A stretch of 57,091 nucleotides of DNA from a virus (lineage: Duplodnaviria; Heunggongvirae; Uroviricota; Caudoviricetes), in the IMG/VR virus record IMGVR_UViG_2534681675_000025, positions 1 to 57,091 of that record. One strand, given 5' to 3'. Below the pieces are notes generated by a model. It was not told the DNA's origin. It searched no databases and saw only the letters and a list, made by a program, of their open reading frames with translations. The position numbers were made by a program, and so were the translations under genes. Position 1 is the stretch's first letter, and each line of letters begins with the position of its first letter. Below are positions 1 through 46,614 of this stretch, one piece after another.

Positions 1-3000
1 AGCAGTAAGGGGCATACCCCGCGCGAAGCGAAGGATAACCTGAAGTCCACGCAGTTGCTGAGTGTGATCGATGCCATCAGCGAAGGGCCGGTTGAAGGTC
101 CGGTGGATGGATTAAAAAGCGTGCTGCTGAACAGTACGCCGGTGCTGGACAGTGAGGGGAATACCAATATCTCCGGTGTCACGGTGGTGTTCCGTGCAGG
201 TGAGCAGGAGCAGACACCGCCGGAGGGATTTGAATCCTCCGGCTCCGAGACGGTGCTGGGTACGGAAGTGAAGTACGACACGCCGATTACCCGGACCATC
301 ACGTCTGCAAACATCGACCGTCTGCGCTTTACCTTCGGTGTGCAGGCACTGGTGGAAACCACCTCAAAAGGGGGGACCCGAATCCGTCGGAAGTCCGCCT
401 GCTGGTTCAGATACAACGTAACGGTGGCTGGGTGACGGAAAAAGACATCACCATTAAGGGAAAAACCACCTCACAGTATCTGGCCTCGGTGGTGGTGGGT
501 AACCTGCCGCCGCGCCCGTTCAGTATCCGGATGCGCAGGATGACGCCGGACAGCACTACAGACCAGCTGCAGAACAAAACGCTCTGGTCGTCATACACCG
601 AAATCATCGATGTGAAACAGGGCTACCCGAACACGGCACTGGTCGGTGTACAGGTGGACTCGGAGCAGTTCGGCAGCCAGCAGGTGAGTCGTAATTATCA
701 TCTTCGCGGGCGCATTCTGCAGGTGCCGTCGAACTATAACCCGCAGACGCGGCAATACAGCAGTATCTGGGACGGAACGTTTAAACCGGCATACAGCAAC
801 AACATGGCCTGGTGTCTGTGGGATATGCTGACCCATCCGCGCTACGGCATGGGGAAACGTCTTGGTGCGGCGGATGTGGATAAATGGGCGCTGTATGTCA
901 TCGGCCAGTACTGCGACCAGTCAGTGCCGGACGGCTTTGGCGGCACGGAGCCGCGCATCACCTGTAATGCTTACCTGACAACACAGCGTAAGGCGTGGGA
1001 TGTGCTCAGTGATTTCTGCTCGGCGATGCGCTGTATGCCGGTATGGAACGGGCAGACGCTGACGTTCGTGCAGGACCGACCGTCGGATAAGGTGTGGACC
1101 TATAACCGCAGTAATGTGGTGATGCCGGATGATGGCGCGCCGTTCCGCTACAGCTTCAGCGCCCTGAAAGACCGCCATAATGCCGTTGAGGTGAACTGGA
1201 TTGACCCGAACAACGGCTGGGAGACGGCGACAGAGCTTGTGGAGGACACGCGGGCCATTGCCCGTTACGGTCGTAATGTCACGAAGATGGATGCTTTTGG
1301 CTGTACCAGCCGGGGGCAGGCACACCGCGCCGGGCTGTGGCTGATTAAAACAGAACTGCTGGAAACGCAGACCGTGGACTTCAGCGTGGGCGCAGAAGGG
1401 CTTCGCCATGTGCCGGGCGATGTCATTGAAATCTGTGATGATGACTATGCCGGTATCAGCATCGGCGGGCGCGTGCTGGCGGTAAACAGCCAGACCCGGA
1501 CGCTGACGCTCGACCGTGAAATCACTCTGCCATCCTCCGGTACCACGCTGATAAGCCTGGTTGACGGAAGTGGCAATCCGGTCAGCGAGGAGGTTCAGTC
1601 CGTCACCGACGGCGTGAAGGTGAAAGTGAGCCGTGTTCCTGACGGCGTTGCTGAATACAGCGTGTGGGGGCTGAAGCTGCCGACGCTGCGCCAGCGCCTG
1701 TTCCGCTGCGTGAGTATCCGTGAGAACGACGACGGCACGTATGCCATCACTGCCGTGCAGCATGTACCGGAAAAGAAGCCATCGTGGATAACGGGGCGCA
1801 CTTTGACGGCGACCAGAGCGGCACGGTGAATGGTGTCACACCGCCAGCGGTGCAGCACCTTACCGCCGAAGTCACCGCAGACAGCGGGGATATCAGGTAC
1901 TGGCCCGCTGGGACACGCCGAAGGTGGTGAAGGGCGTGAGCTTCATGCTTCGCCTGACCGTGGCAGCGGACGACGGCAGTGAGCGGCTGGTCAGCACAGC
2001 CCGGACAACGGAAACCACATACCGCTTCAGACAACTGGCGCTGGGGCGTTATATGCTGACGGTCCGGGCGGTAAATGCCCGGGGGCAGCAGGGTGATCCG
2101 GCGTCGGTATCGTTCCGGATTGCGGCACCGGCAGCGCCTGTCACTATTGAACTGATACCGGGGTATTTTCAGATAACGGCAGTCCCGCGTCTTGCGGTGT
2201 ATGACCCGACGGTGCAGTTTGAGTTCTGGTTCTCGGAAAATCAGATTACGGATATCCGGCAGGTTGAAACCACAGCCCGCTATCTCGGTACGGCGATGTA
2301 CTGGACAGCTGCCAGTATTAATATCAGGCCGGGCCATGATTATTACTTTTATATCCGCAGTGTGAACATCGTCGGTAAATCAGCGTTTGTGGAAGCTGTC
2401 GGCCAGCCGGTTAATGATGCTGAGGTGTATCTCAATTTTTTTGAAGGGAAAATAAACAGCACCCTGCTGGGGCAGGAGCTGAACGATCGTATTAATGCCT
2501 CGGCATTGCGCAGTGAAGTTGAGCAACTGGAGGATGAGATCAATCAGCAGATAGAGAGTGATATTGCTGAAGTGACCCAAAAAATCGGGGAGACAGAAAA
2601 CAGCCTCACGCAGCTGGTTGCGAAAAAAAATGATGAGCTGTCACTGGGTATATCACAGGTGAGCCAGAGAGTGGATAACGTCAGCAGCGAACTCACGCAG
2701 ACGGTCAGTCAGAGTAATGAGGAGAATGCACGCCAGATAGCGCAGGTTCGCCAGTATGTGGATCAAAAAAGCAGTGAAATCATGACGACAACGGACCAGA
2801 AGCTGGGAGATCAGGAGGCCACCATCCAGCAGATACAAAAGGTTCAGACGGACACCAGTAATAACCTGAACAGTATGTGGGCCGTGAAACTGCAGCAGAT
2901 GCAGGATGGTCGCCTTTATATTGCGGGTATCGGTGCCGGTATTGAGAACACCCCCGACGGCATGCAGAGTCAGGTGCTGCTGGCGGCAGACAGGATTGCG

Positions 3001-3690
3001 ATGATTAATCCTGCAAATGGCAACACAAAACCGATGTTTGTTGGTCAGGGTGATCAGATATTCATGAATGAAGTGTTCCTGAAATATCTGACGGCTCCCA
3101 CCATTACCAGCGGCGGTAATCCTCCTGCATTTTCCCTGACACCGGACGGAAAGCTGACCGCTAAAAATGCCGATATCAGCGGTAACGTGAATGCGAACTC
3201 CGGGACGCTCAACAACGTCACGATAAATGAGAACTGTCAGATTAAGGGGAAACTGTCAGCCAATCAGATTGAAGGCGATATTGTCAAAACGGTGGGAAAA
3301 TCCTTTCCGAGAAATGGCAGTTATGCCAGCGGTACAATAACGGTCACTGTGTACGATGACCAGGCTTTTGACCGTCAGATAGTAATCCCACCCGTTCTGT
3401 TTCGCGGTGGTAAGCATGAAAACTTTAACAGCAACAACCAACAGTCATACTGGTACTCAACCTGTAAGCTGCAGGTGCTGAAGAACGGACAGGAAATCTT
3501 TCAGCAACCCGCGACGGATGTCAGCAGGGTATTTTCATCCGTCATCGATATGCCTGCCGGACACGGGCATGTCACCCTGACTTTCAATGTTTCTTCATAT
3601 GGTGCTAATAACTGGACGCCAACGACCAGTATCAGCGACCTTCTTGTTGTCGTGATGAAGAAATCAACAGCCGGTATCAGTATCAGCTGA
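1..3690 (+). pseudogene. J: Lambda J-like host specificity (tail tip) gene, 5' end outside window, reading frame broken at about 372-395, 1771-1774 and 1890
   Basis: Three consecutive ORFs (55-435, 432-1829, 1924-3690) in frames 1/0/1 together read as one J-like protein (SVIDAISEGP..., KTTSQYLASVV..., C-terminal fibre domain); frame switches sit at G/A homopolymer runs. Confidence 0.8.
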
Positions 3691-3708
3691 ATTTTATAAC
3701 CCCAATAC

Positions 3709-3732
3709 GGGCGCCAGAAATGGCGCTTTTTT
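3709..3732 (+). terminator. Putative rho-independent terminator after J
   Basis: GC stem (gggcgcc/ggcgc) followed by a T-run. Confidence 0.45.
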
Positions 3733-3756
3733 ATTGCAGAAAAGCGAGAGGTAATT

Positions 3757-4356
3757 ATGCGTAAATTATGTGCTGTTATTCTGTCTGCAGTAGTCTGGCT
3801 GGTCGCCGCTGGTACGCCAGCGAGTGCAGCAGAGCATCAGTCCACACTAAGCGGCGGGTATCTTCAGTCCCATACTGATATGCCCGGAAACGATGACCTG
3901 AAGGGCATTAACGTGAAATACCGTTATGAATTTACGGACACGCTGGGGCTGGTGACGTCATTCAGCTATGCAGGAGACAAGAATCGCCAGCTGACCCGTT
4001 ACAGTGATACCCGCTGGCATGAAGATTCCGTTCGTAACCGCTGGTTCAGCGTAATGGCGGGGCCGTCTGTGCGCGTGAATGAATGGTTCAGCGCGTATGC
4101 GATGGCGGGTGTGGCTTACAGCCGTGTATCGACTTTCTCCGGGGATTATCTCCGCGTAACTGACAATAAGGGGAAAACGCACGATGTGCTGACCGGAAGT
4201 GATGACGGTCGCCGCAGCAACACGTCTCTGGCGTGGGGAGCTGGCGTGCAGTTTAACCCGACCGAATCCGTGGCTATTGATGTCGCTTATGAAGGCTCCG
4301 GCAGTGGCGACTGGCGCACTGACGGTTTCATCGTGGGTGTCGGTTATAAATTCTGA
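3757..4356 (+). CDS. lom: Lom/Ail-family outer membrane beta-barrel protein
   Basis: 199 aa, signal peptide, aromatic C-terminal YKF, position between J and stf as in lambda. Confidence 0.85.
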   Translation: MRKLCAVILSAVVWLVAAGTPASAAEHQSTLSGGYLQSHTDMPGNDDLKGINVKYRYEFTDTLGLVTSFSYAGDKNRQLTRYSDTRWHEDSVRNRWFSVMAGPSVRVNEWFSAYAMAGVAYSRVSTFSGDYLRVTDNKGKTHDVLTGSDDGRRSNTSLAWGAGVQFNPTESVAIDVAYEGSGSGDWRTDGFIVGVGYKF

Positions 4357-4382
4357 TTAGCCAGGTAACACAGTGTTATGAC

Positions 4383-4409
4383 AGCCCGCCGGTTCAGGCG
4401 GGCTTTTTT
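4383..4409 (+). terminator. Rho-independent terminator after lom
   Basis: agcccgcc-ggttcag-gcgggc stem followed by tttttt. Confidence 0.6.
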
Positions 4410-4414
4410 GTGGG

Positions 4415-6510
4415 GTGAATATGGCAGTAAAGATTTCAGGTGTCCTGAAGGACGGAGCGGGTGAGCCTGTCGTAAACTGTGCGATTGAATTGCGTGCCAG
4501 AAGAACCAGTCCGACAGTTGTGGTTAATATTGTGGCAACCTGTCTTACGGGAAGTGATGGCGGGTATACTATTAATGCTGAGCCGGGATTTTATGATGTA
4601 TTTTTGTCCCGCTCAGGGCATCCTCCTGTAAAGGCGGGGGAAATTTATGTTGCACCGACAGATGAGCCGGATACGCTGAATGCTTTTCTGGATGCACCAA
4701 AGGAGGGTGATTTACGCCCTGAGGTAATGAAGCGTTTTGAGGAAATGATAAATACCGTTTTTCGCTTGTCTGAGCAGGTGGTCAGTGACAGGGAGAGAGC
4801 AGAAACAGCTGCTGATGATGCAATCAATGCAGCAACATCTGCGGCGGTTAGTAAGGATGAGGCAGAAGAGCTAAAAAATCAGACACAGCAGAGCGCCGAA
4901 GCTGCAGCCGGAAACGCACAGCAGACGGCACAGGATGTGACGACAACCGCAACGGCCCGTGATGATGCGGAACGTTTTGCGGGTGAGGCAGAAAACAGCG
5001 CACAGTCATCAGGCACATCGCGGGATGAATCAGTCGATGCCGCCGAACGTGCCCGCCTTTATCATAATGCCGCATCATCAGCTGCAACCAGCGCGGAAAA
5101 TGCAGCAAATGCTGCACTCGGGCATGAAAACAGCGCCGCTGAATACGCCCGACAGGCTAAAGCCAGCCAGGATGCAGGTGCAGACAATGCGCAGGAAGCG
5201 AAACAGTACAGGGATGAGGCGCAGCAGATAGTTGATGACCTGAATGCAACAAATGCCTCCACGACAGAAAAAGGTCTGGTGCAACTGTGTAGTGATACGG
5301 ACAACGACAGCGAGGAACTGGCTGCCACGCCAAAGGCTGTCAAAACCGTCATGGACGAGACGAAACAAAAGCGCCACTGGACAGCCCGGCCTTCACCGGC
5401 ACCCCAACCACCCCAACCCCACCGGATGATGCCGCCGGTCTGGAAGCAGCGAACGCAGCGTTTGTGCGCAAACTGCTTGCTGCGCTGGTTGGCTCATCGC
5501 CGGAAGTTCTGGACACCCTGAACGAGCTGGCAGCGGCGCTGGGCAATGACCCGAACTTTGCGACGACAATCACAAACGCGCTGGCAGGCAAACAACCGCT
5601 TAATGACGTCTTAACGGCAATCAGCGCACTGACGCAACGGGCAGATAATCTTCTGTACTTCAATACAGACGGGAATGCCTCACTGTCTCTGCTGTCAGAG
5701 AAGGGCCGCGCATTGCTGGCGCATGACACGGCTGAAGCCATGCGCACGGAGCTTGAGCTGAGCGCGGCTGCGACGATGGAACCCCAGAGTGATATCCGTG
5801 ACCGCACACCGGGCAGGCTGGCCCTGTCCGGGATGTATGGGTTTGGACAGGCATTCACCAGCGCCGAAGCTCTGTCATTTAACGGACAGGCTGATTTCGT
5901 TATATGGCTGCAGACAGTCACCCCGGGGCGTTATGCGGTCAGTATTGCGGACTCCTCCACGCTGCTGGTGGGCACCACGAAATTTAACGGTATCATTGAT
6001 GTGATGTGGTCACCCTCTGATAACGATGGTTCAGACTCAGCGCGTAAATTCAAAACGCTGCTGTACTACAACCAGTATTACGAGGATGAGCACAGCATAC
6101 ATTGTATGCGTTATCGCTACAGTGGTAACAGCTGGAATGCAACATCAAGCCTTATTGTGTATGACGGCAACTCCCTGGCATATCTGATGTCCTCAACCGC
6201 CGGTAATGGTCCGTTCTCATATTACCAATACCCGGCCGTCGGTGTGCCGATTATGGCGGTATATCAGGGAGAAAGTTTTGGTGAAAATGCTTCTCTGGGA
6301 CTCGGTGATACTGTGCCGGGTTCCCGTCTTGGTCCTCTGGCCATGAGTGCACAGGTTAGTGATACAGGGACATACGCATCCTCACCGCAGGTTGTGATTG
6401 GCGGTGCCGGTGAATACAACTTCCCCGGTCGTTACACGGCGCTTTCGGGCCTGGGTAACAATTATGGTACTCAGCGTGGCTTTATCGGTCTTTTTGTACG
6501 CATTGAGTAA
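4415..6510 (+). pseudogene. stf: Side tail fibre gene (lambda Stf-like), single frameshift in an A-run at 5367-5370
   Basis: ORFs 4415-5521 and 5464-6510 are N- and C-terminal parts of one fibre; frame 1 upstream of 5464 reads KAPLDSPAFTGTPTTP..., continuous with the downstream ORF; A4 where A5 would keep the frame. Confidence 0.75.
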
Positions 6511-7097
6511 TGAGGAAATCAGGCATGAAAATCAGAGCGGTGAAAGGTATCAGAAACGCACATTATCTTGAAAATGGTGCGGTTGACTGCGAGGTGTTAT
6601 TTGAAGGTGAAACGGAGTTTGCCCTGTATACCGCCATACAGGATGACACGGCCCCGACAGGCCAGCACATCTGGCAGGAGCTGCAAAGCGGGAAATGGGG
6701 CGAAATCGCCCCGTTCACTGTCACGCCTGAACTTATTGCAGCGGCAAAGGATGCCAAAAGGCGGGAAATTGAGGCATGGCGCGACAGTCAGGAAAACGTT
6801 GAGTTTATTTTCACGTTTGATGGCCGTCGTTTTGATGGCGGAAAAACCTCGCAGTCACGCCTTGCGCCCGTGGTTGCAACAGCGCAGGCCGGACTGCTTC
6901 CGGATGGTTTTTTCTGGACTGATGCGGATAATAACAACGTCGTACTGACCAGGGAGAAACTTATTGCGCTGAACGATGCCATGATGGTGGCCATGGTGGC
7001 GGAGGGCTTTAAAATCCACGAACGCCAGCGCGAGATGAAGGAACAACTGAATAATCTGGATGATTTGCGTTCAATCAGAGCGTTTGACGTGACGTAA
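6510..7097 (+). CDS. tfa: Tail fibre assembly protein (Tfa)
   Basis: 195 aa, start overlaps stf stop, Tfa-like sequence, position after stf. Confidence 0.85.
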   Translation: MRKSGMKIRAVKGIRNAHYLENGAVDCEVLFEGETEFALYTAIQDDTAPTGQHIWQELQSGKWGEIAPFTVTPELIAAAKDAKRREIEAWRDSQENVEFIFTFDGRRFDGGKTSQSRLAPVVATAQAGLLPDGFFWTDADNNNVVLTREKLIALNDAMMVAMVAEGFKIHERQREMKEQLNNLDDLRSIRAFDVT

Positions 7098-7143
7098 TTG
7101 GTAGGTTGCGTCATGTTGAATTGTTACTCTTAGTTACAAATAG

Positions 7144-7177
7144 AAAAGCCTCTGACTTCACAATCAGAGGCTTTTTT
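7144..7177 (+). terminator. Rho-independent terminator after tfa
   Basis: aaaagcctctga...tcagaggctttttt hairpin plus T-run. Confidence 0.6.
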
Positions 7178-7295
7178 GAAATGCACGTGCATTTTGCGTG
7201 TATATTTTTGTCTTTTTTAAGTCCGCTTACTGTCTGGTCAGTGTCCGTAAGTGGCTGTTTTTATTGCCGCTGTCCGGTTGCAGTCCTATCAAAAG

Positions 7296-7340
7296 TGGTG
7301 GAGCTGGCGGGAGTTGAACCCGCGTCCGAAATTCCTACAT
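7296..7340 (-). other. ssrA: 3'-terminal 45 nt of ssrA (tmRNA) only; prophage attachment-site core, not a full tmRNA gene
   Basis: Reverse complement reads ATGTAGGAATTTCGGACGCGGGTTCAACTCCCGCCAGCTCCACCA (T-arm, acceptor 3' strand, CCA); upstream sequence diverges from tmRNA. Confidence 0.75.
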
Positions 7341-7472
7341 ACCATTTTTACTATAACAAAAACATGAACTTATGTTTAAAATCAGTATGTTAGTATTATT
7401 TTGTGTTTGTCTGTTTTACGCATTTTTAATGCTCTGCCGCCAAAATGCCGCCACTGGTTTTGCTTGGGAGAC

Positions 7473-8993
7473 TTATTCAGGCTTTAATTTATTGATAATA
7501 GAATCTACCATTTTAATGCCTGCCTCATTGACTATGACTGAATTGACTACTCTATCAAAATAGTCTTCTATATGGTGGGAAAATAGGAAAGCAGCACTTG
7601 ATGGTTTTTTGTTCTTTTCAACAGCAGATTGCAAGACTTCATGAGGCGGAATTTTAAACCTTTTGCATGATGCAATGAGATATTCAAACTCTTCAAATGA
7701 TAGACAAAAAATATTCTCTGTAGGGATATGATAGTTATGTTTAAACTTGTCATATATCTTATTCATCTCATCTTTAGCATAAGTATTAGCTAGGATACTA
7801 CCATTGCCTAAGAAAAGGTTTTTATATGTAATGCAAATGATATATGAGTTAGCCCTGAATGGAGCTATTATTCGCTCATTAGAGTATATTTCTCGATTAA
7901 CTTCGTGAGATTGTTCGATTGCTTTTAATACCGATTTCTTTATTTTTCCTGCAATATCCTCAGGGCGTAATGTTACCATGCCTTTTTGGTGTATCTCAAC
8001 GCCTTTAGCATCAATGAAAATATTTGCCTCAGTATGTGGAATGAAATAATCAACTACTTTATTATCTTTAGGTAGTCGTTCTTTAAGGTATTTTTCGTTA
8101 TGAAAATCAATTTCGCTTTCTTTTAGTATTAATTCCAGTGCATTTTCAAATACATTTCCAAAGCTATCCATGAACTTCTCGGCATCAGTTCTTCTTAAAA
8201 GATCATATATGAACGTCTGTATGCTTGTTGAAGTCAGTTGTGTGTGTATCTGAAAATACTCTGAACCTTTTTTTATTAATGGTTTTTCAAGGAAAGGTGA
8301 TGATGAGTAGTATTCAAGCAAAGGTTTATCATAGGTTTTTGATTTGCAAAATGTAGATAGTTCATTGTAATTTATTGATATTGCATCAAGAAATTTCTCA
8401 ATGGTATTTCTAGGAATGATGTCAAATAATATAGTAAATGTATCTACATTCATTTTTCTCACGGGATGCTCTTCTGTTATGTGAGTTATTAATATGTAAG
8501 ATAGCTTAAGAAAGTCTTCGATAGATACATTCGTGATAGTAAAAAAACTTGTCTTTATTTTATGGTTTTTTTCAAGTTCTGAAAATAGAAAGACTTGTCT
8601 GCTAATTGTGTTTAGAGCGTCAATTTTCTGGTAGATTCCTTGTTGGTATAGATTATTTCTAATGAAGAAATGCATGCCATTCTTCCTCTCAAGACCGATA
8701 GGAATAATGTTCAAGGTTTCATAAGTTTTTTGGAAGAGTTTTATTGCTTGATTTTTATCGAGGATTTTGAATTTTTTATTCTTGCCAGTTACTGACGCAG
8801 ACCACTTTAGACATAAATTAACAATCCAAGGCATGTGTCGTAACATGTGGATATTATCTTCAAATTTTTGTAAGTTATATTGCATACAGAATTCGATAAA
8901 TAAATCAGGGGAATAACCTTGGATTTCTGAACGAATAGCATCCATTCTTAACTTTGCAACCGCATCAGATTGAATATCTAATTTTTGAATCAC
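7473..8993 (-). CDS. Hypothetical protein, 506 aa, strongly AT-rich cargo gene between att remnant and int
   Basis: Long uninterrupted ORF; composition much more AT-rich than flanking phage genes; no motif I can recognise by eye. Confidence 0.7.
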   Translation of the reverse strand: MIQKLDIQSDAVAKLRMDAIRSEIQGYSPDLFIEFCMQYNLQKFEDNIHMLRHMPWIVNLCLKWSASVTGKNKKFKILDKNQAIKLFQKTYETLNIIPIGLERKNGMHFFIRNNLYQQGIYQKIDALNTISRQVFLFSELEKNHKIKTSFFTITNVSIEDFLKLSYILITHITEEHPVRKMNVDTFTILFDIIPRNTIEKFLDAISINYNELSTFCKSKTYDKPLLEYYSSSPFLEKPLIKKGSEYFQIHTQLTSTSIQTFIYDLLRRTDAEKFMDSFGNVFENALELILKESEIDFHNEKYLKERLPKDNKVVDYFIPHTEANIFIDAKGVEIHQKGMVTLRPEDIAGKIKKSVLKAIEQSHEVNREIYSNERIIAPFRANSYIICITYKNLFLGNGSILANTYAKDEMNKIYDKFKHNYHIPTENIFCLSFEEFEYLIASCKRFKIPPHEVLQSAVEKNKKPSSAAFLFSHHIEDYFDRVVNSVIVNEAGIKMVDSIINKLKPE

Positions 8994-9005
8994 AATAGGT
9001 CTCCA

Positions 9006-10019
9006 CTACAAATTATAAAGAGGATTTTTAGTCACCGCGTCTTCAAGGTGATCGGGCGAAAAGTGGGCGTAAATCATGGTCATTTTTATATCGGCATGAC
9101 CCAAAATATCACGCAGTACCAGTATGTTTCCGCCGTTCATCATAAAGTGACTGGCGAATGTATGGCGAAGCACGTGGGTGCATTGGCCCTCCGGTAGGTC
9201 AATACCGGCCCGCTTTACTGCCCGCTCAAAGGCTTTTCTGCATGGCGTGAATAACTTTCTTCTGTTTTTGGGGAGTTCATCATACAGATCCTGAGATATC
9301 GGCACAGTACGGTTTTTCTTGCCTTTTGTTTTTGTATAAGTAATTCGGTATTTCGATATTTGATGGCCCTGCAGATTTTCGGCTTCACTCCACCGTGCGC
9401 CAGTAGCCAGGCATATTTTTGCAATCATTAGTAAGCTAGGGCTTTGAGATTCAGCACATGCCGCCAACAGGCGCTTGATTTCGTCCGTGGAAAGAAAAGC
9501 CAGCTCACCTTCGGCAATTTTGAAGGTCGGAAGTCCTGCCAGCGGGTTTGGTGCTGACCAGTGTCCTAGTTTTTTTAATGTACCGAACACAGATGATAGA
9601 TTGCGCTGTTCAAGGTTTACCGTGCGGGGCTTAACGGGCGACATCAGCGTGCCATCTTCATTTCGCACTTCACCTTTTAGCCGTGCTTCGCGGTATTTCG
9701 TAAAGTCACCGGCAGTCAGCTCTGAAGCGATGGGATCGCCCAGACCATTACAGATAATTCCAAGTTTCGCCATGAGTCGCTTGGGGTCTGCGAGTGTTTG
9801 ACCATACAGGGAATACCACAGCTCAATTAATTCTGATAGGTGTCGCCGATCTTCCTTTTCTCCCAGCCAAGGTTTCTTGTTTACCTCGTCCATGGTGAAA
9901 TTCTCAAACGCAATGGCTTCGCCTTTCGTCGCAAATTGTTTGCGTACGCGTTTGCCATCTCGCCCGTTTGGGTAGCATTCACATAACCACTTTCCGTTCG
10001 GCTGTTTTCTGATGGTCAT
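9006..10019 (-). CDS. int: Tyrosine integrase (P2 Int family)
   Basis: 337 aa; C-terminal HVLRHTFASHF...GH...MIYAH catalytic region; adjacent to repressor. Confidence 0.9.
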   Translation of the reverse strand: MTIRKQPNGKWLCECYPNGRDGKRVRKQFATKGEAIAFENFTMDEVNKKPWLGEKEDRRHLSELIELWYSLYGQTLADPKRLMAKLGIICNGLGDPIASELTAGDFTKYREARLKGEVRNEDGTLMSPVKPRTVNLEQRNLSSVFGTLKKLGHWSAPNPLAGLPTFKIAEGELAFLSTDEIKRLLAACAESQSPSLLMIAKICLATGARWSEAENLQGHQISKYRITYTKTKGKKNRTVPISQDLYDELPKNRRKLFTPCRKAFERAVKRAGIDLPEGQCTHVLRHTFASHFMMNGGNILVLRDILGHADIKMTMIYAHFSPDHLEDAVTKNPLYNL

Positions 10020-10020: not shown

Positions 10021-10653
10021 TCAAAGGCTCTTAATGATTTTCAGTGCGCGGCCTATTACCTCAATGTCATCCAGTTCGCACTCAAACGATGAATCATCCT
10101 GATGCACTACTAATCTGTTTCCCGGGAGTCGTGTCAATTTTACAATGCTTTTTATCCCGTCGATGTCCACTAACCACGTACCATTTACTGGTGGTGTTTG
10201 GTTGCGATCTATTAAATAAGAATCACCAGAAGTAGTCACCAGCAGCAGGTTGCTTGAGTCTGAGGGGAGTATGCTGCTATCAATGATTGCTTTTCCAGCA
10301 TCGATCAGCAAACCTCCGTTGAGAGTTGCCTTGTCAATTTCAGGAGATACAAGCTCCGAAAGAGGTTTAACTTTGCTAGAGTTCACGGAATTGATATTTT
10401 TTTTAGGGTCAATGTTTGAACCTGGATCGCCCTGTCCGGTAGTTAGCCACAGTAAAGAAACTCCTGTTTCCAAAGCGCACTGAATCACCCATTCTGCAGG
10501 AAAACTATCTCTTAAGTATCTGTTTGCCATAGTGCTTTTTGATGCGCCCAAGTGATCGCAAAGTTGCTGTCTGGACTTGAAATCATAGGCTGCCATTAGC
10601 CTATGGATAGCCTCTCTTCCCCCTGTATTCTCGCCAGCTTTTACTTGTATCAT
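10021..10653 (-). CDS. cI: CI-type prophage repressor (186 CI-like, two-domain)
   Basis: 210 aa, N-terminal HTH-like region, divergent from the lytic promoter, immediately upstream of int. Confidence 0.75.
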   Translation of the reverse strand: MIQVKAGENTGGREAIHRLMAAYDFKSRQQLCDHLGASKSTMANRYLRDSFPAEWVIQCALETGVSLLWLTTGQGDPGSNIDPKKNINSVNSSKVKPLSELVSPEIDKATLNGGLLIDAGKAIIDSSILPSDSSNLLLVTTSGDSYLIDRNQTPPVNGTWLVDIDGIKSIVKLTRLPGNRLVVHQDDSSFECELDDIEVIGRALKIIKSL

Positions 10654-12377: not shown

Positions 12378-12604
12378 TGGCTGATGCAATGGATCTTGTA
12401 CAGCAGCGCGTTGAAGAAGAACGCCAGCGCCATATCCGTGCTGCCCGTGCCAAAACGCCGGGCGTGTCCCGCGTGCTTTGCATTGAGTGTGAAGCGCCAA
12501 TTCCGCCAGCACGCCGCCGCGCCATTCCAGGTGTGCAGCTTTGCATTACCTGTCAGGAAATCGCAGAACTGAAAGGCAAACATTACAACGGAGGTGCTGT
12601 ATGA
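12377..12604 (+). CDS. TraR/DksA-family C4 zinc-finger protein
   Basis: 75 aa with CIECEAPI...CITCQ (four Cys); common small early gene in P2-like phages. Confidence 0.7.
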   Translation: MADAMDLVQQRVEEERQRHIRAARAKTPGVSRVLCIECEAPIPPARRRAIPGVQLCITCQEIAELKGKHYNGGAV

Positions 12605-13458
12605 GCACCATCCTGAAATGGGCGGGAAATAAAACCGCCATTATGTCCGAACTGAAAAAACACCTTCCTGCTGGCCCGCGACTGGTTGAACCTTTCGCGG
12701 GTTCCTGTGCTGTGATGATGGAGACGGATTACCCCAGCTATCTGGTTGCGGATATTAATCCTGATTTAATCAACCTCTATAAAAAGGTTGCCGCTGATTG
12801 TGAATCGTTTATATCTCGCGCCAGAGTTTTATTTGAGATCGCAAACAGGGAGGTGGCTTATTACAACATAAGGCAGGAGTTTAATTACTCCACTGAAATT
12901 ACTGATTTCATGAAAGCGGTATATTTCCTGTATCTCAATCGTCACGGTTACCGTGGTTTATGTCGCTATAACAAGAGCGGGCATTTCAACATTCCCTACG
13001 GTAATTATAAAAATCCGTATTTCCCTGAAAAAGAAATTCGCGCATTTGCAGAAAAAGCCCAGCGGGCAACGTTTATCTGCGCCAGCTTTGATGAAACGCT
13101 GGCGATGTTGAAGGCGGGGGATGTGGTGTATTGCGATCCGCCGTATGACGGCACGTTTTCCGGTTATCACACTGACGGCTTCACTGAAGATGACCAGTAT
13201 CACCTGGCATCCGTTCTTGAACATCGGTCATCAGAAGGACATCCGGTCATTGTTTCTAACAGTGACACATCCCTGATCCGTTCGCTGTATCGCAATTTTA
13301 CTCACCACTACATCAAGGCAAAACGCAACATCGGTGTGGCAGCTGGCGAGGGTAAATCAGCAACAGAAATCATTGCTGTTTCCGGGCCGCGCTGCTGGGT
13401 GGGATTTGATTATTCGCGTGGCGTGGACAGTTCTGCCGTGTACGGAGTACGTGCATGA
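12601..13458 (+). CDS. dam: DNA adenine methyltransferase (Dam-like, N6-adenine)
   Basis: Begins [11 protein letters not shown]; contains DPPY motif ([10 protein letters not shown]) and N-terminal SAM-binding region FAGSCAV. Confidence 0.85.
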
Positions 13459-15869: not shown

Positions 15870-15962
15870 TTACGCTGGTTAACAATTCGTGCTCTTAATA
15901 ATACCAGGCATATCAGGCTGATAAGCGTAAAAAAAACGTTTTACATCAGTAAGATTATTATA

Positions 15963-15982
15963 TACTGTAAATATAAACAGTG
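15963..15982. promoter_or_regulatory. Candidate LexA (SOS) box upstream of the DinI-like module
   Basis: tactgtaaatataaacagtg = CTGT-N8-ACAG consensus, about 45 bp upstream of the 16024 ORF. Confidence 0.55.
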
Positions 15983-16023
15983 GTTATACATACAGCATTG
16001 CGTGTGGTGTCATAGGAGGAAAG

Positions 16024-16212
16024 ATGCAGGACTATTTTTTGGAGTCTTTGAAGCTCCAGCGCATTGATTTTTTTCTTAAGCTTGTAGCGGCTAGTGAGTG
16101 TAGTGATGAAGAGAAGGGGCTGGCTCTGCAGTGGGTTTCTGAATTGACTGATGAACTCATGGCAAAAATCAGAAGCCACGAATACAACCGCTCAATGGAT
16201 GTCATCAGCTGA
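16024..16212 (+). CDS. Hypothetical small protein, possibly Tum-like antirepressor N-terminal part
   Basis: 62-aa ORF downstream of the LexA box and immediately upstream of the DinI-like gene. Confidence 0.4.
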   Translation: MQDYFLESLKLQRIDFFLKLVAASECSDEEKGLALQWVSELTDELMAKIRSHEYNRSMDVIS

Positions 16213-16222
16213 GGTGACTTTT

Positions 16223-16456
16223 ATGCGCATTGAAATAATGATCGATAAAGAGCAGAAGATTAGCCAGTCTACCCTGGACGCCCTTGAATCCGAGCTTTAC
16301 CGCAATCTGCGCCCCCTGTATCCCAAAACGGTAATCCGTATCCGTAAAGGTAGCTCTAACGGTGTGGAACTGACCGGACTGCAACTGGACGAAGAAAGAA
16401 AACAAGTGATGAAAATTATGCAGAAGGTGTGGGAAGACGACAGCTGGCTGTATTGA
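16223..16456 (+). CDS. DinI-family protein
   Basis: 77 aa, MRIEIMIDKEQ...VWEDDSWLY, resembles DinI (MRIEVTI...WESADDWF). Confidence 0.75.
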   Translation: MRIEIMIDKEQKISQSTLDALESELYRNLRPLYPKTVIRIRKGSSNGVELTGLQLDEERKQVMKIMQKVWEDDSWLY

Positions 16457-16569
16457 TTTTGTCAATAGACGCTTGTTTTTACTAATCAAAAAGGGTTACA
16501 TATGAGTGAGAGGCGATGTCAATCAGATATCGCCTTGTTTTTTGTCAAGAAAAGAATAATAGGCTAAAA

Positions 16570-17247
16570 ATGAAAATTAATAATGTAGCGTTACCAATAT
16601 CTCTTGCTGTAATCCTAACTGGTTGCGTGCCACATGCTTCTAACCGAAATATCACTGCTATTGAAGTGGTGAAGCCTGCTATTGGGCAAAGTGCTACCGC
16701 CTACATGGGCGATCCCATTATCACATCTGCTACTGGATTTAAAACGGACGTACTAGAACTTGGTGCGGCTAATGGTGCATTGTCTTCTATCGCTGCTGGT
16801 ACATATTGCAGTGAGGGGAATGGAATTTACCGCAATTATCATAACCCTCAAGCTGTTGCGTTAAAAAATCTCTATGGGCAAATCGGTAACTATGTTGATT
16901 ATGTTAGTTACGATGCTGCAAAAAATGAGATATCACCGCCAAATGGTACTTCTTATACTGCATCAGAAATTTCTATCAAACGTGTTCCTGATGGGCTGTG
17001 TCGAGTTAGTAACTCATTGGTTAAGACTATCGAATACAATGGAAATGCAGGCGGTGTAATGAAGTTCACCTATCGTGAATTTGCAAACGATATGGCTCGT
17101 GCAGCATTTACAACAGATTTTTCTGTAGATTCTAAGGGAAGTGACGTTATCGCTTACAAAGGTGCCAAGTTCAAAGTGAACAAGGCTGATAACTCGTCTA
17201 TTTCTTATACAATTATTTCTGGCTTTGACAAGGCTGTCACGTTCTAG
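16570..17247 (+). CDS. Predicted lipoprotein, function unknown (cargo)
   Basis: MKINNVALPISLAVILTGC lipobox signal; 225 aa; lies between the replication gene and cos. Confidence 0.7.
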   Translation: MKINNVALPISLAVILTGCVPHASNRNITAIEVVKPAIGQSATAYMGDPIITSATGFKTDVLELGAANGALSSIAAGTYCSEGNGIYRNYHNPQAVALKNLYGQIGNYVDYVSYDAAKNEISPPNGTSYTASEISIKRVPDGLCRVSNSLVKTIEYNGNAGGVMKFTYREFANDMARAAFTTDFSVDSKGSDVIAYKGAKFKVNKADNSSISYTIISGFDKAVTF

Positions 17248-17350
17248 GTTTCACGCTTACTGAGTATGTTACGATTTTGCACATTCTGCATAAGCGCGCA
17301 TGTCTATGCTGCATGAGATCGCATGATCGTTTGAGGATCTTTTGTGTTAA

Positions 17351-17375
17351 GGCCCGCCAGTTCTGGCGGGCTTTT
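17351..17375 (+). terminator. Putative terminator after the lipoprotein gene
   Basis: ggcccgccag-ttc-tggcgggc stem followed by tttt. Confidence 0.5.
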
Positions 17376-17420
17376 GCGTAGATCATGCAGGTGCATGAAA
17401 ACCACTACATAAAGCGGGCA

Positions 17421-17439
17421 GGCGTGGCGGGGATACGAG
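17421..17439 (+). other. Candidate cos (cohesive end) site of prophage 1
   Basis: ggcgtggcggggatacgag followed by cgcgcgct; resembles the P2/186 cohesive-end sequence as I recall it (GGCGAGGCGGGGAAAGCAC then TGCGCGCT). Confidence 0.5.
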
Positions 17440-17549
17440 CGCGCGCTCATGGTTGAATTAATGAAATTATGGTGTTAAATAGGCTAGCTTTTTAAGTCGT
17501 GAATATTCAATTTTTCAACTCATTTTTTTCATAGGGAGGAGTAATTGAC

Positions 17550-18248
17550 ATGGTTATGTTAGTGGATGACTGTCCACGATGTGGATCACAAAAAATAGCG
17601 TTTGATGTTAATGGGCTGAATTGCACTAGGGTTTACAATGCATTGGGCGGGGGTAAAACATACGAGTACGAGGTCTATTGTGTTTGCCGAGAGTGTCATA
17701 AAACGACAATGTTTCTTTGCAGACCTTTAACGAAAAATAAAACTTTAGATGGCTATAATTGGGAAAGTGGAATATTCGGCTTAAAGGAAGTTGCAGAGGT
17801 TGTTAGGCCTATATCACCGGCAGACTTAGCAGTAGAGGAGCCACCAGAGTTCTTACCTGAGCATATCAATAGTGCATATGAGGAAGGGGCGAAATGTTTG
17901 GCTATAGGTTGTTATAATGCAGCAGCAACCATGTTTAGGCTTTGCCTTGATTATGCCACAAAAGGACTTCTTCCTGATGGGGAGCAAGGGCCTGCGCAAA
18001 AAATAAGGAGAAGCCTAGGGTTAAGAATGGAGTGGTTATTTGATAATCATCTACTGCCTGAAGCTTTAAGGGAACTAGCTGAATGCGTTAAAGATGACGG
18101 AAATGATGGAGCGCATGAAGGTATTTTGGATAAAGCTGCTGCTGAGGATCTTGAAGATTTTACCTATCTTTTTTTAGAACGGCTTTACACTGAACCTCAA
18201 CGCCTTATCGAAGCCAAGACAAGGCGTGAACAAAGAAGAAACAAATAA
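17550..18248 (+). CDS. Zinc-ribbon plus alpha-helical domain protein (possibly DUF4145-like), inserted between cos and Q
   Basis: 232 aa; N-terminal CPRCG...CVCRECH four-Cys ribbon; RBS gggagga before ATG; convergent with Q, 3' ends 8 bp apart. Confidence 0.7.
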   Translation: MVMLVDDCPRCGSQKIAFDVNGLNCTRVYNALGGGKTYEYEVYCVCRECHKTTMFLCRPLTKNKTLDGYNWESGIFGLKEVAEVVRPISPADLAVEEPPEFLPEHINSAYEEGAKCLAIGCYNAAATMFRLCLDYATKGLLPDGEQGPAQKIRRSLGLRMEWLFDNHLLPEALRELAECVKDDGNDGAHEGILDKAAAEDLEDFTYLFLERLYTEPQRLIEAKTRREQRRNK

Positions 18249-18256
18249 GTTCGGAA

Positions 18257-22049: not shown

Positions 22050-23108
22050 ATGAAGAAGAATACCCGTTTTGCTTTTAACGCTTACCTGCAGCAACTGGCG
22101 CGTCTGAACGGTGTGGCAGTTGAGGAACTGTCCAGCAAGTTCACCGTAGAGCCGTCTGTGCAGCAGACGCTGGAAGACCAGATCCAGCAGTCCGCCGCTT
22201 TCCTGACGCTGATTAACGTCACGCCAGTGACTGAGCAGTCCGGTCAGCTGCTTGGATTGGGTGTTGGCAGCACCATTGCCGGAACCACTGACACCACCGC
22301 GAAAGAGCGTGAACCTGTCGATCCGACGCTGATGATCGATGTGGAATACAAATGCGAACAGACCAACTTTGACACGGTGCTGACCTACGCGAAGCTGGAC
22401 CTGTGGGCGAAGTTTCAGGATTTCCAGGTGCGTATCCGTGACGCCATCGTGAAACGCCAGGCACTGGACCGCATCATGATCGGCTTTAACGGCGTGAAGC
22501 GTGCGAAAACCTCCAACCGTAGCGAAAACCCGCTGCTGCAGGATGTGAACAAAGGCTGGCTGCAGAAAATCCGTGAGGATGCACCGGATCACGTCATGGG
22601 CAGCACCACCACGGGCGGTGAAACCACACCGGGTGCGGTGAAAGTCGGGAAAGGTGGCGAATATGCCAACCTGGACGCCGTGGTGATGGATGCGGTCAAT
22701 GAGCTTATCGACGTGGTCTACCAGGACGATGACGATCTGGTGGTGATTTGCGGTCGTGAGCTGCTGTCTGACAAGTATTTCCCGCTGGTCAACAAAGAGC
22801 AGGAAAACAGTGAAAAACTGGCTGCCGATATGATCATCAGTCAGAAACGCATGGGTGGCCTGCAGGCCGTGCGTGCGCCGTTCTTCCCGCCGAATGCGCT
22901 GCTGATCACCCGTCTGGATAACCTGTCCATTTACTGGCAGGAAGACACCCGCCGCCGTTCGGTTATCGACAACCCGAAACGTGACCGGATTGAAAATTTT
23001 GAATCCGTTAACGAAGCCTATGTGGTTGAGGACTACCGCTGCGCCGCACTGGTGGAAAACATCCAGATTGGCGACTTCAGCGCCGCCGCAGCAGAAACCG
23101 GAGCGTAA
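22050..23108 (+). CDS. N: Major capsid protein (P2 gpN family)
   Basis: 352 aa, position after O. Confidence 0.9.
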   Translation: MKKNTRFAFNAYLQQLARLNGVAVEELSSKFTVEPSVQQTLEDQIQQSAAFLTLINVTPVTEQSGQLLGLGVGSTIAGTTDTTAKEREPVDPTLMIDVEYKCEQTNFDTVLTYAKLDLWAKFQDFQVRIRDAIVKRQALDRIMIGFNGVKRAKTSNRSENPLLQDVNKGWLQKIREDAPDHVMGSTTTGGETTPGAVKVGKGGEYANLDAVVMDAVNELIDVVYQDDDDLVVICGRELLSDKYFPLVNKEQENSEKLAADMIISQKRMGGLQAVRAPFFPPNALLITRLDNLSIYWQEDTRRRSVIDNPKRDRIENFESVNEAYVVEDYRCAALVENIQIGDFSAAAAETGA

Positions 23109-29098: not shown

Positions 29099-29696
29099 TC
29101 TGCTGCCACCGGGTTCAACTTCACTGGAGCGCCGACTGGCGCAAACCTGTAGCGGGATTTCTGATCTGCAGGTGCCGCTGCGTGACTTGTGGAATCCGGC
29201 TACCTGTCCGGTCAGCTTCCTGCCTTATCTCGCCTGGGCGTTCTCTGTGGATCGCTGGGACGAGGGCTGGACAGAAAGCGTCAAACGCCAGGTAGTGAAG
29301 GATGCTTTTTATATTCATCAGCATAAAGGAACTACCAGTGCCGTGCGGCGGGTGGTGGAACCGTTCGGATTCCTGATCCGCATTATTGAGTGGTGGCAGA
29401 CCGGAGAAACACCGGGCACGTTTCGCCTGGATATCGGCGTGCAGGACCAGGGCATCACTGAAGATACCTATCTGGAACTTGAGCGGCTGATAAGCGATGC
29501 CAAACCATGTAGCCGTCACATGATCGGCATGTCCATCAATCTGCAGACCAGCGGTCCGCATTGGGTGGGGGCCGCCAGCTATCTTGGCGAAGAAATCACG
29601 ATCTATCCGTATATCAACGAAACAATTATTTCCGGCGGCACCGCGCATGAAGGCGGGGCGGTCCATGTTATTGACACAATGAGAGTGAATCCATGA
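29091..29696 (+). CDS. I: Baseplate protein (P2 gpI family)
   Basis: 201 aa, begins MNSLLPPGSTSLERRL. Confidence 0.85.
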   Translation: MNSLLPPGSTSLERRLAQTCSGISDLQVPLRDLWNPATCPVSFLPYLAWAFSVDRWDEGWTESVKRQVVKDAFYIHQHKGTTSAVRRVVEPFGFLIRIIEWWQTGETPGTFRLDIGVQDQGITEDTYLELERLISDAKPCSRHMIGMSINLQTSGPHWVGAASYLGEEITIYPYINETIISGGTAHEGGAVHVIDTMRVNP

Positions 29697-31210
29697 GCAC
29701 AAAATTTTATACCCTGCTGACGGATATTGGCGCGGCGAAACTTGCCAGCGCCGCCGCGCTCGGTGTGCCGCTAAAAATTACCCATATGGCGGTGGGCGAT
29801 GGCGGCGGAACATTGCCAACGCCGGACGCCAAGCAGACAGCATTGGTAAATGAGAAACGCCGGGCTGCGCTGAATATGCTCTATATCGACCCGCAGAACA
29901 GCAGCCAGATTATTGCTGAACAGGTGATCCCTGAAAACGAGGGCGGTTGGTGGATACGTGAAGTGGGCCTGTTTGATGAGTCCGGGGCATTGATTGCCGT
30001 GGGCAACTGCCCGGAAAGCTATAAGCCGCAACTGGCTGAAGGCAGCGGGCGTACCCAGACCGTGCGCATGGTGCTGATTACCAGCAGCACGGACAATATC
30101 ACCCTGAAAATCGACCCTGCCGTAGTGCTGGCAACCCGCAAGTATGTGGATGACAAGGTACTGGAGCTGAAGGTGTACGTGGATGATCAGATGGCAAAAC
30201 ATCTTGCCGCACCGGACCCGCATTCACAGTATGCACCCAAAGAAAGTCCGACGTTTACCGGGACACCAAAAGCGCCAACTCCAGCGGCAGGGAATAACAC
30301 CACGCAGGTTGCGACCACCGCGTTTGTTCAGGCGGCACTGACGGCTCTTATTAATGGTGCGCCAGCCACGCTGGACACGCTGAAAGAAATAGCCGCAGCC
30401 ATTAACAATGATCCGAATTTCAGTACCACCATTAACAATGCGCTGGCACTGAAAGCGCCGTTGTCGAGTCCGGCACTCACCGGAACGCCAACAGCCCCCA
30501 CTGCTGCACAGTCGGTCAACAATACACAGATTGCCACCACGGCTTTTGTGAAATCGGCGATTGCAGCAATGGTAGGTTCTGCACCTGCGGCACTGGATAC
30601 ACTGAACGAACTGGCGTCGGCGTTGGGGAATGATCCGAACTTTGCCACGACAATGCTTAATGCGCTGGCAGGTAAACAACCGCTGGACAATACGCTGACT
30701 AATTTGAGTGGAAAGGATGTCGCTGGTCTTCTCGCATACCTTGGTTTGGGAGAAGGTGCTCCAGCTATTGGCGTTCCGTTCTTCTGGCCGTCCGCCGCAA
30801 TGCCAGATACCGTAATCGAAAGCTGGTCCGGCATGGTGTTTTTGAAGTTCAACGGCGCGAAATTCTCTGCCACTGATTACCCTGTGCTGGCGAAAGTGTT
30901 TCCTTCGCTGGTATTACCTGAAGCCCGCGGTGATTTCATTCGTATCTGGGATGATGGCCGTGGTGTTGATAGTGGCCGTGCGTTACTTTCCGCGCAATCA
31001 GACGATTTCAAAACGCACGAGCATAAAATTTTAGGGCTAAATGGAAGTGGCAGTAATGTAGTGTTTGGCACCGTTTCGAATGCTTCTCCATTATATACCA
31101 GCGGCGTTAGTCAGCCGGGTGGAAGTGCTTTGCCCGCTTTTCAAAACCCAGGCGGTACTGAAACGCGTCCCCGTAACATCGCATTCAACTTTTTAGTAAG
31201 GGCTAAATAA
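29693..31210 (+). CDS. H: Tail fibre protein (P2 gpH family)
   Basis: 505 aa; conserved N-terminus; internal repeats of the LDTLxELAxALGNDPNF motif. Confidence 0.85.
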   Translation: MSTKFYTLLTDIGAAKLASAAALGVPLKITHMAVGDGGGTLPTPDAKQTALVNEKRRAALNMLYIDPQNSSQIIAEQVIPENEGGWWIREVGLFDESGALIAVGNCPESYKPQLAEGSGRTQTVRMVLITSSTDNITLKIDPAVVLATRKYVDDKVLELKVYVDDQMAKHLAAPDPHSQYAPKESPTFTGTPKAPTPAAGNNTTQVATTAFVQAALTALINGAPATLDTLKEIAAAINNDPNFSTTINNALALKAPLSSPALTGTPTAPTAAQSVNNTQIATTAFVKSAIAAMVGSAPAALDTLNELASALGNDPNFATTMLNALAGKQPLDNTLTNLSGKDVAGLLAYLGLGEGAPAIGVPFFWPSAAMPDTVIESWSGMVFLKFNGAKFSATDYPVLAKVFPSLVLPEARGDFIRIWDDGRGVDSGRALLSAQSDDFKTHEHKILGLNGSGSNVVFGTVSNASPLYTSGVSQPGGSALPAFQNPGGTETRPRNIAFNFLVRAK

Positions 31211-31803
31211 TGAAACCTGTTTTTGATGAAAATGGACTGGCTACAGTGCCGGGTGATATGCGTTGTTTTTATTATGATGCAGTAACGTATGAATATACGG
31301 GCTGGTCTGATGAATATATTAATACTGGTATAAGTATGCCCGCCTGTTCCACTGGTATTGACCCTGGCGAAAACATTCCGGGAAAAGTGGCTGTATTTAC
31401 AGGTAAGGGATGGAGCCATGAAGAGGACCATCGCAATGAGACTGTTTACTCAATCGAAAATGGCGCAGCTGTTACAGTGGATTATATCGGTGCCATCAAA
31501 AACGGTTATGTCACGCTTTCACCGTTAACGCCATATGATAAATGGGATGGTGAGAAATGGGTGACAGATACTGAGGCACAACACGGTGCCGCAGTAGAAG
31601 CGGCAGAAGCACAGCGTCAGCCACTGATTGATGCTGCAATGGCTTCCATCAGTCTGATTCAGCTGAAATTACAGGCCGGGCGGAAGCTGACGCAGGCAGA
31701 AACCACCCGGCTTAACGCCGTGCTTGATTACATTGACGCGGTGACGGCAACAGATACGAGCACCGCTCCGGATGTCATCTGGCCTGAACTGCCGGAGGCG
31801 TAG
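31210..31803 (+). CDS. G: Tail fibre assembly protein (P2 gpG family)
   Basis: 197 aa, start overlaps H stop. Confidence 0.8.
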   Translation: MKPVFDENGLATVPGDMRCFYYDAVTYEYTGWSDEYINTGISMPACSTGIDPGENIPGKVAVFTGKGWSHEEDHRNETVYSIENGAAVTVDYIGAIKNGYVTLSPLTPYDKWDGEKWVTDTEAQHGAAVEAAEAQRQPLIDAAMASISLIQLKLQAGRKLTQAETTRLNAVLDYIDAVTATDTSTAPDVIWPELPEA

Positions 31804-32209
31804 GCCATTCAATATCTGGAGCACTGGAGGTATCAACCAGTTCCAGTGCGTCCAGATAATCCAGCCACAAATTATATTGCGCCAGTTCCTCACCTTTCAG
31901 ACGACCAATAGCCGCTTTACCAGGCCATTGCTTGGTATTCATATATTCGTTGGACTGATTAATCAATTGCTGTTTTTTCAATTCGGCTGCGGCAATCTGT
32001 TCCTCATGTGTTGGTGGTGGAATTTCAGACCATGCAGGAAAACCATTTTCCCCAGCGATACGGATTTTTCCTTTCGGCGGTAATCCGGAAAACTCAATAT
32101 ACACCTGCTCATCAACTTCAACAGCATCATCTGGCCATGAATTTACATTGATGTAGTCATCCTTAAGCGCAGGATTCACAAAAATATTTAAAGATGGACT
32201 AAAAAACAC
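31775..32209 (-). CDS. G: Tail fibre assembly protein (gpG family), prophage 2
   Basis: 144 aa; Tfa-like C-terminus; 3' end overlaps prophage 1 G by 29 bp, convergent. Confidence 0.75.
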   Translation of the reverse strand: MFFSPSLNIFVNPALKDDYINVNSWPDDAVEVDEQVYIEFSGLPPKGKIRIAGENGFPAWSEIPPPTHEEQIAAAELKKQQLINQSNEYMNTKQWPGKAAIGRLKGEELAQYNLWLDYLDALELVDTSSAPDIEWPTPPAVQAR

Positions 32210-32210
32210 A

Positions 32211-46010: not shown

Positions 46011-46040
46011 ATTGTGCAAATTTGTGCACTATTGTGCATT
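46011..46040. repeat. Three TTGTGCA half-site repeats at about 10-bp spacing (candidate operator or packaging-recognition repeats)
   Basis: attgtgcaaatttgtgcactattgtgcatt; followed by a hairpin (aaacgccctggaagagggcgtttt, 46043-46068). Confidence 0.4.
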
Positions 46041-46078
46041 AAAATAAACGCCCTGGAAGAGGGCGTTTTGGCTCATTT

Positions 46079-46613: not shown

Positions 46614-46614
46614 A

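Follow-up and report, generated by a model that had tools for sequence, protein, structure and literature searches.

A GapS1-family gene behind the integrase of an ssrA-integrated P2-family prophage, a very probable single-gene anti-phage defence cargo

We analysed a 57,091-nucleotide stretch of tailed-phage DNA (IMG/VR record IMGVR_UViG_2534681675_000025), referred to as the window below. Towards its left end, a remnant of the ssrA attachment site is followed by a single gene and by the integrase and repressor genes of a prophage:

7296-7340, minus strand: att core of 45 bp, a duplicate of the 3' end of ssrA (tmRNA), found as a unique exact match at the ssrA-distal prophage end
7341-7472, no strand: AT-rich spacer of 132 bp from the att core to the gapS1 stop codon, without a further gene and within the phage record
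7473-8993, minus strand: gapS1 coding sequence (ORF list, NCBIfam NF047931 match, identical RefSeq coding sequence)
8994-9005, minus strand: int-gapS1 spacer of 12 nt, carrying a GGAG ribosome-binding site at 9004-9001
9006-10019, minus strand: tyrosine integrase gene (int) of a P2-family prophage, the conserved anchor gene of the slot (ORF list, RefSeq)
10021-10653, minus strand: CI repressor gene of the 186/Fels-2 type (Pfam Phage_CI_repr and Phage_CI_C), with a 1-nt gap to int

The att core is the reverse complement of the last 45 nt of E. coli ssrA. An initial annotation had placed a 506-aa ORF on the int strand between an ssrA-derived att core and int, and the ORF list together with the exact 45-bp ssrA match confirms this arrangement. 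The prophage extends from 7341 to about 30.7 kb and is a P2-family (Peduoviridae) element of the 186/Fels-2 type with genes for CI, CII, Fil, Dam, replication endonuclease A, portal, terminase, capsid and tail fibre. It is 94-99% identical to twelve records named 'Klebsiella phage Kp48xx-2', and position 7341 is the exact start of all twelve. The same prophage in E. coli MFDS1019527 has the order att remnant, gapS1, int and CI, continuing to ogr, an intact ssrA and smpB. ARAGORN and Rfam detected no tmRNA gene in the window, so that the att core is no more than a remnant. An intact ssrA would be expected at the far end of the prophage, but at about 30.7 kb the window passes over into another prophage. 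The spacer 7341-7472 holds only short, implausible frames in the ORF list and is phage DNA, presumably an attP arm.

Positions 1-7295 of the window are the right end of a lambdoid prophage that abuts the ssrA att remnant, and two prophages thus lie side by side. The lambdoid right end contains:

432-3690: fragments of tip attachment protein J
3757-4356: Lom
4415-6510: side tail fibre
6510-7097: DUF4376 assembly protein

These correspond to the J, Lom, Stf and Tfa genes of a lambdoid prophage, and the J frame appears to be split (465 + 588 aa).

According to the ORF list of the window, gapS1 encodes 506 amino acids from a GTG start. The RefSeq coding sequence of E. coli MFDS1019527 has the same ends and shows 0 differences in 507 codons. 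The int stop codon (9008-9006) lies 12 nt upstream of the GTG, and the GGAG Shine-Dalgarno sequence (9004-9001) precedes it by 7 nt. In an alignment of 16 homologues the start position is common to relatives down to 50% identity. Support for the GTG start is limited to the Shine-Dalgarno sequence, the RefSeq annotation, the N-termini of homologues and helix 10-25 of the structural model. On the partial sequence available for the active homologue WP_152927281.1, that protein was cloned from an internal methionine, which is M17 of its longer allele and corresponds to the M16 region of the window protein (codons 1-16, 8946-8993). Because this clone is active, the first ~16 residues of GapS1 appear dispensable for defence. 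The plus-strand ORFs that overlap the locus (7106-7393, 7372-7563, 8225-8356 and others) were rejected as chance frames in AT-rich antisense.

The base composition of gapS1 sets it apart from its neighbours. Its GC content is 0.314 (GC3 0.278) as compared to 0.478 in int, 0.514 in the prophage and 0.519 in the window. More specifically, gapS1 is the lowest-GC 1521-bp stretch in the whole 57-kb window, about 3.6 SD under the mean, and the gene is indeed far more AT-rich than its surroundings, as had been noticed at the outset.

The NCBIfam model NF047931.1 (antiphage_GapS1) matched the protein over the entire model, with E=3.1e-128 and 428.5 bits (cut-off 320); residues 20-474 align with model positions 1-455 of 455. 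RefSeq holds the identical protein from E. coli as WP_000615103.1, under the gene name gapS1 and the product name 'GapS1 family protein'. A HMMER search of 1.84 billion cluster representatives returned 1,570 GapS1 clusters at E<=1e-3 and 638 at E<=1e-30 (clusters at 50% identity), nearly all of them with proteins of about 500 aa. The gene is therefore no orphan, as the initial annotation had called it. Other resources were less informative. Pfam gave only a sub-threshold TPD match (14.6 bits vs 27), which was dismissed; PADLOC-DB 2.0.0 (2023), a release older than GAPS1, gave no match; in PHROGs the protein belongs to phrog_14259, a family with no assigned function. Word-indexed protein searches with the single sequence and with a profile did not reach the Vibrio prototype of the family. 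Judged by sequence, the ORF is a member of the GapS1 (GAPS1) family and carries every family feature that can be examined in silico. The gene is already known: its exact product is named in RefSeq, and GAPS1 has been published and is already annotated.

GAPS1 was defined by Mahata et al. in their Gamma-Mobile-Trio (GMT) paper (bioRxiv 10.1101/2023.03.28.534373), with V. parahaemolyticus WP_005477165.1 as the prototype. The prototype is a single protein encoded in a Vibrio GMT island; it protects E. coli against many coliphages and requires D313 and K328 of its C-terminal PD-(D/E)xK site (bioRxiv 10.1101/2023.03.28.534373). T7 escapes through mutations in the major capsid gene, and co-expression of GAPS1 with the capsid protein leads to dormancy (bioRxiv 10.1101/2023.03.28.534373). 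About 78% of the homologues are found in K. pneumoniae, and functional ones are present in E. coli, three of them cloned and one endogenous; the E. coli homologues tested are only 24-29% identical to the Vibrio prototype (bioRxiv 10.1101/2023.03.28.534373). Moreover, DefenseFinder has detected GAPS1 in phage and Klebsiella surveys, and a 2025 meeting report describes protection against many phages by K. pneumoniae GAPS1.

Two of the E. coli homologues shown to block coliphages, EJP5250929.1 and WP_152927281.1 (Mahata et al., bioRxiv 10.1101/2023.03.28.534373), are close relatives of the window protein. GapS1 is 58% identical over 504 aa to EJP5250929.1 (member P0063 of our hit set) and 78% identical to P0004, whose residues 17-142 are 100% identical to the first 126 aa of WP_152927281.1. 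The value of ~78% for the WP_152927281.1 allele is thus derived through P0004 from the first 126 residues of WP_152927281.1.

In the 16-homologue alignment six residues are invariant: E283, E300, D315, D328, K330 and E333. The motif reads VVD(315)Y...IFID(328)AK(330)GVE, and the corresponding parts of the gene are the following:

7674-8186, minus strand: PD-(D/E)xK nuclease core, about residues 270-440
8051-8049, minus strand: catalytic codon D315
8012-8010, minus strand: catalytic codon D328
8006-8004, minus strand: catalytic codon K330
8147-8145, minus strand: further codon E283
8096-8094, minus strand: further codon E300
8187-8993, minus strand: N-terminal alpha-helical part with a probable winged-helix module, about residues 1-269

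In a diverse set of 123 family members, namely the window protein and 122 full-length representatives sharing only 20-39% identity with it, every member has D315, D/E328, K330 and Q361. The spacing of 15 residues between D315 and K330 is that of the prototype (D313, K328); judging from the HMM match, the identity of the motif and this equal spacing, the two pairs probably correspond. The nuclease core is the most conserved segment of the protein (0.64 vs 0.46-0.56 in the flanks). The AlphaFold2 model is confident (pLDDT 86.6, pTM 0.87). In it, a long helix is followed by consecutive strands that bear the catalytic residues, as in the PD-(D/E)xK topology. The superfamily core alpha-beta-beta-beta-alpha-beta, with D...(D/E)xK on strands 2 and 3, is likewise found in GapS1. 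In structure comparisons the model matched FokI/BspD6I-type restriction nucleases and the defence protein Upx. A sequence-profile search of the PDB gave nothing meaningful (DivIVA and PilX at E ~0.1-0.2), and the viral structure library BFVD contained no match at E<=0.001. The initial statement that no nuclease or other known motif could be seen does not hold, given the D315...D328-x-K330 PD-(D/E)xK site and the restriction-endonuclease fold. According to the model, GapS1 consists of an N-terminal part with helices and a winged helix (~1-269) and, joined to it, a FokI-like nuclease core (~270-440). The N-terminal part is predicted to be the sensor or to bind nucleic acid. The combination of a winged-helix module and a type IIS-like fold suggests that the nuclease substrate may be DNA.

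The same observations bear on whether gapS1 could be a decaying or silent remnant, that is, an acquired AT-rich gene that has lost its function or is fully silenced. Xenogeneic DNA open to silencing typically has a very low GC content, and the promoter scan, which performed at chance level, identified no promoter of gapS1's own. Against this, the frame is intact and has the full length of the family, all catalytic residues are in place, and >1000 contigs from E. coli, Klebsiella and Enterobacter encode the same protein or one that is >=99.6% identical. We hold decay or complete silencing to be the least probable of the readings considered here, with hardly any weight. The P2-family phage that carries gapS1 is shared by the three genera and is apparently mobile.

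GapS1 is encoded as a single gene, with int on one side, the att core on the other and no other plausible ORF between them. The neighbours differ in Photobacterium and metagenomic homologues. One Photobacterium homologue, 31% identical, has an AAA_15/AAA_21 ATPase gene pair and an integrase fragment as its neighbours.

The region behind int is variable among related prophages. In prophages whose integrases are 93-96% identical at the amino acid level, the post-int slot holds at least five unrelated AT-rich single-gene families: GapS1, a 401/418-aa family (Cartapus gp33, RE2010 gp01, tcmA_3, Ecol_316), a 331-aa HNH_2 protein, a 327/343-aa family and a 197-aa family. The cargos other than GapS1 all have a GC content of 0.33-0.35, and apart from GapS1 and the HNH protein none received a Pfam or NCBIfam assignment. 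The slot loci compared are:

7341-9005 in the window
1665-2870 in L004
204-1409 in L005
1713-2708 in L006
1837-2868 in L007
501-1757 in L016
503-1486 in L017
464-1057 in L018
511-1716 in L019

The GapS1 alleles found in the slot are only 41-50% identical to each other. The arrangement cI-int-gapS1 recurs in the Klebsiella prophage ST437-OXA245phi4.1 (48.6% identity; GapS1 model score 393 bits) and in a Salmonella 186-like prophage (50% identity). A related int (>=80% nucleotide identity) is present in 210 of 5,426 complete E. coli genomes, and 15 of these 210 carry the gapS1 allele of the window, to which the count was confined. The turnover of genes and the GC content of 0.33-0.35 support independent acquisition of the cargos into a cassette-like slot. 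Separate horizontal acquisition of gapS1, first suggested by composition, is borne out by the drop in GC content and by the swapping of unrelated genes behind near-identical integrases.

A role of GapS1 in the life cycle of the prophage rather than in defence (as a nuclease of recombination, excision or replication, or in exclusion of a P4-type satellite) has to be weighed here. The gene is codirectional with int and follows it after 12 nt, and recombination nucleases exist among PD-(D/E)xK enzymes. Its replacement by unrelated genes, the rarity of this allele among the roughly 210 genomes with related int, its foreign GC content and the protection conferred by homologues cloned alone all speak against such a role, and we regard it as very improbable. 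It is highly likely, in our assessment, that gapS1 encodes a stand-alone anti-phage defence enzyme that is accessory cargo of a 186/Fels-2-like P2-family prophage integrated in ssrA. The proposal of the initial annotation, a single-gene anti-phage or growth-arrest factor carried at a prophage end, agrees well with the full-length GapS1 match and with the protection of E. coli by homologues of 58% and ~78% identity. Reading the sequence alone can thus spot defence cargo from composition and position.

How would such an enzyme act in the lysogen? Family membership, the intact catalytic site, the nuclease fold, the single-gene organisation and the cargo slot come from the present analysis, and the mechanism is carried over from published homologues. 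In the lysogen GapS1 would be made but kept inactive. When another phage infects, a structural protein (the T7 major capsid protein in the case of the Vibrio prototype) would be sensed by the non-catalytic part of GapS1, and the C-terminal PD-(D/E)xK nuclease would be switched on. Activated GapS1 would then stop growth by dormancy or abortive infection, leaving the invading phage unable to multiply. Such a response would shield both the lysogen population and the resident prophage. The initial description of the mechanism as unknown was overstated, since the trigger (T7 capsid), the need for the nuclease site and the dormancy are all published for the family.

Expression of gapS1 probably occurs by read-through of the lysogenic cI-int transcript. 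We infer this because the gaps between the three genes are 1 and 12 nt with no intervening terminator. The spacing between int and the cargo is -4 to +71 nt in all relatives. On the minus strand from cI to the gapS1 stop codon no terminator-like site was seen, in a promoter and terminator scan that performed at chance level. From the gene spacing, cI, int and gapS1 probably form one lysogenic transcription unit. It is important to note that the resident prophage encodes its own major capsid protein (22050-23108) and makes its own capsid; a capsid-triggered GapS1 would therefore need a means of self-tolerance. Operon coupling might explain how the phage tolerates a capsid-sensing nuclease despite having a capsid of its own.

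For the gene itself little is new, the window adding one more correctly placed example of prophage-borne GAPS1. Its address may be: a single-gene exchange slot between int and the att site of ssrA-integrating 186/Fels-2-like Peduoviridae could be undescribed, a tentative suggestion with the chances somewhat against it. The description of P2 hotspots by Rousset et al. 2022 does not mention a post-int/pre-att slot. Should the slot cargos, like GapS1, be defence genes that are read from the lysogenic cI-int transcript, then new single-protein defence systems would be represented by the 401/418-aa, 327/343-aa and 197-aa families. Most of the other genes that occupy the slot between the conserved int and the ssrA att core are uncharacterised, and candidate defence genes can be mined there, which is a modest lead. 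GAPS1, with its high frequency in Klebsiella pneumoniae and its presence on a P2-family phage shared between hosts, is relevant to host-range failures in phage therapy.

Several other features of the window were noted. The cos-adjacent P2 hotspot of the gapS1 prophage (15870-18256) lies between replication gene A and portal Q, has a GC content of 0.40-0.43 and contains:

16151-16456: DinI-like gene
16516-17247: gene of a 243-aa protein of PHROG 1353, a family without function
17550-18248: gene of a 232-aa DUF4145 protein with a weak PD-T7-4 match (E=1e-6)

In the same hotspot Klebsiella phage Kp4845-2, otherwise 96-99% identical, carries Lamassu LmuA/LmuB. A pairing 'GAPS1 + Lamassu-Fam, n=12' has been reported for INPHARED phages, and the combination of Lamassu and gapS1 in Kp4845-2 matches it.

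The switch to another prophage takes place at about 30738-33692 (junction region 31210-32211), inside the tail-fibre gene H (29693-31210). In E. coli MFDS1019527 the DNA that follows the junction is ~0.93 Mb distant and belongs to the invertible tail-fibre segment of another P2-like prophage, which adjoins a DNA-invertase gene. Two convergent, overlapping tail-fibre assembly genes lie at the junction, 31210-31803 on the plus strand and 31775-32209 on the minus strand. Beyond them lies a complete second P2-like prophage, which is inverted and reaches as far as its int at 56069-57091. The genes from tail sheath to ogr are absent for both prophages in the window. This suggests that the junction is either an inter-prophage inversion, mediated by invertase or homology, or a misassembly. 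In the early region of the second prophage (52742-52939, minus strand) Rfam identified a C4 antisense RNA (79 bits) beside the Hfq-binding RNA isrK (62 bits), which suggests an antisense immunity element of the P1/P7 type. Further genes of the second prophage lie within 45741-52020:

46615-47145: XF1762-family protein
48132-49091: ParM/PRTRC-D-like actin-fold protein, weak match
49168-52020: 950-aa replication/nicking protein

None of these three proteins had a PADLOC match.

The fold raises the question whether GapS1 is instead a stand-alone restriction-type endonuclease (type IIS or type IV-like) that recognises incoming phage DNA and cleaves it directly, without needing a protein trigger or arresting growth. 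FokI and N.BspD6I/R.BspD6I, the type IIS enzymes matched by the model, resemble GapS1 in fold only; sequence identity is 8-14%, and GapS1 has no cognate methyltransferase. The linked methyltransferase gene that a type II/IIS restriction-modification system should have is missing next to gapS1 in the ORF list. Pairing with the prophage Dam (12541-13458) was considered and found unlikely, since Dam belongs to the backbone and occurs as well in phage Cartapus, where GapS1 is absent. Moreover, the published behaviour of the GapS1 family is trigger-dependent growth arrest, unlike the sequence-specific restriction of type IIS enzymes. Direct restriction is in our opinion improbable, if somewhat less so than a life-cycle role, and a triggered defence enzyme is the reading that we prefer.

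The closest solved structure found by Foldseek is the 2026 cryo-EM structure of Upx (PDB 9wuf), for which its authors reported no significant structural homologue. Like GapS1, Upx is a stand-alone PD-(D/E)xK defence protein activated by a phage protein, and its catalytic D1161, E1176 and K1178 mirror D315, D328 and K330. In contrast to the 506-aa GapS1 with its single site, Upx has about 1,270 aa and carries, besides its C-terminal nuclease, an atypical one at the N-terminus and a middle domain with a regulatory role. The triggers also differ, being capsid in the GapS1 family and terminase for Upx. The structural similarity is only partial (TM-score 0.35), and the PDB profile search gave no sequence match to 9wuf at E<=10. 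GapS1 was not assigned to Upx as a member, owing to the differences in size and domain set and the lack of sequence similarity. In size GapS1 is close to the C-terminal domain of Upx (residues 715-1272). The structural match and the similar size hint that the two phage-protein-sensing nucleases may share a module.

With the P2/P4 hotspots of Rousset et al. 2022 the gapS1 slot has in common a short, AT-rich locus of high turnover, conserved P2-family flanks and a content of defence genes. The E. coli P2 hotspot of these authors lies between the replication gene and portal/cos, whereas the gapS1 slot is located after int and before att; gapS1 itself sits at the att end, outside the cos-adjacent interval from replication gene A to portal Q/cos. 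The integrase-adjacent example in the same work is located between cI and int in Vibrio K139-like phages, whereas gapS1 follows int. As compared to the GAPS1 prototype, the window protein has the full-length HMM match, the organisation as a single protein of ~500 aa, the C-terminal PD-(D/E)xK site and the D and K residues 15 positions apart. It has an enterobacterial host, in keeping with a family reported mostly from K. pneumoniae, and shows 58% and ~78% identity to validated E. coli members. The two differ in location: the prototype belongs to a Vibrio GMT island, whereas the window copy is the cargo of a P2-family prophage, placed directly behind its integrase gene.
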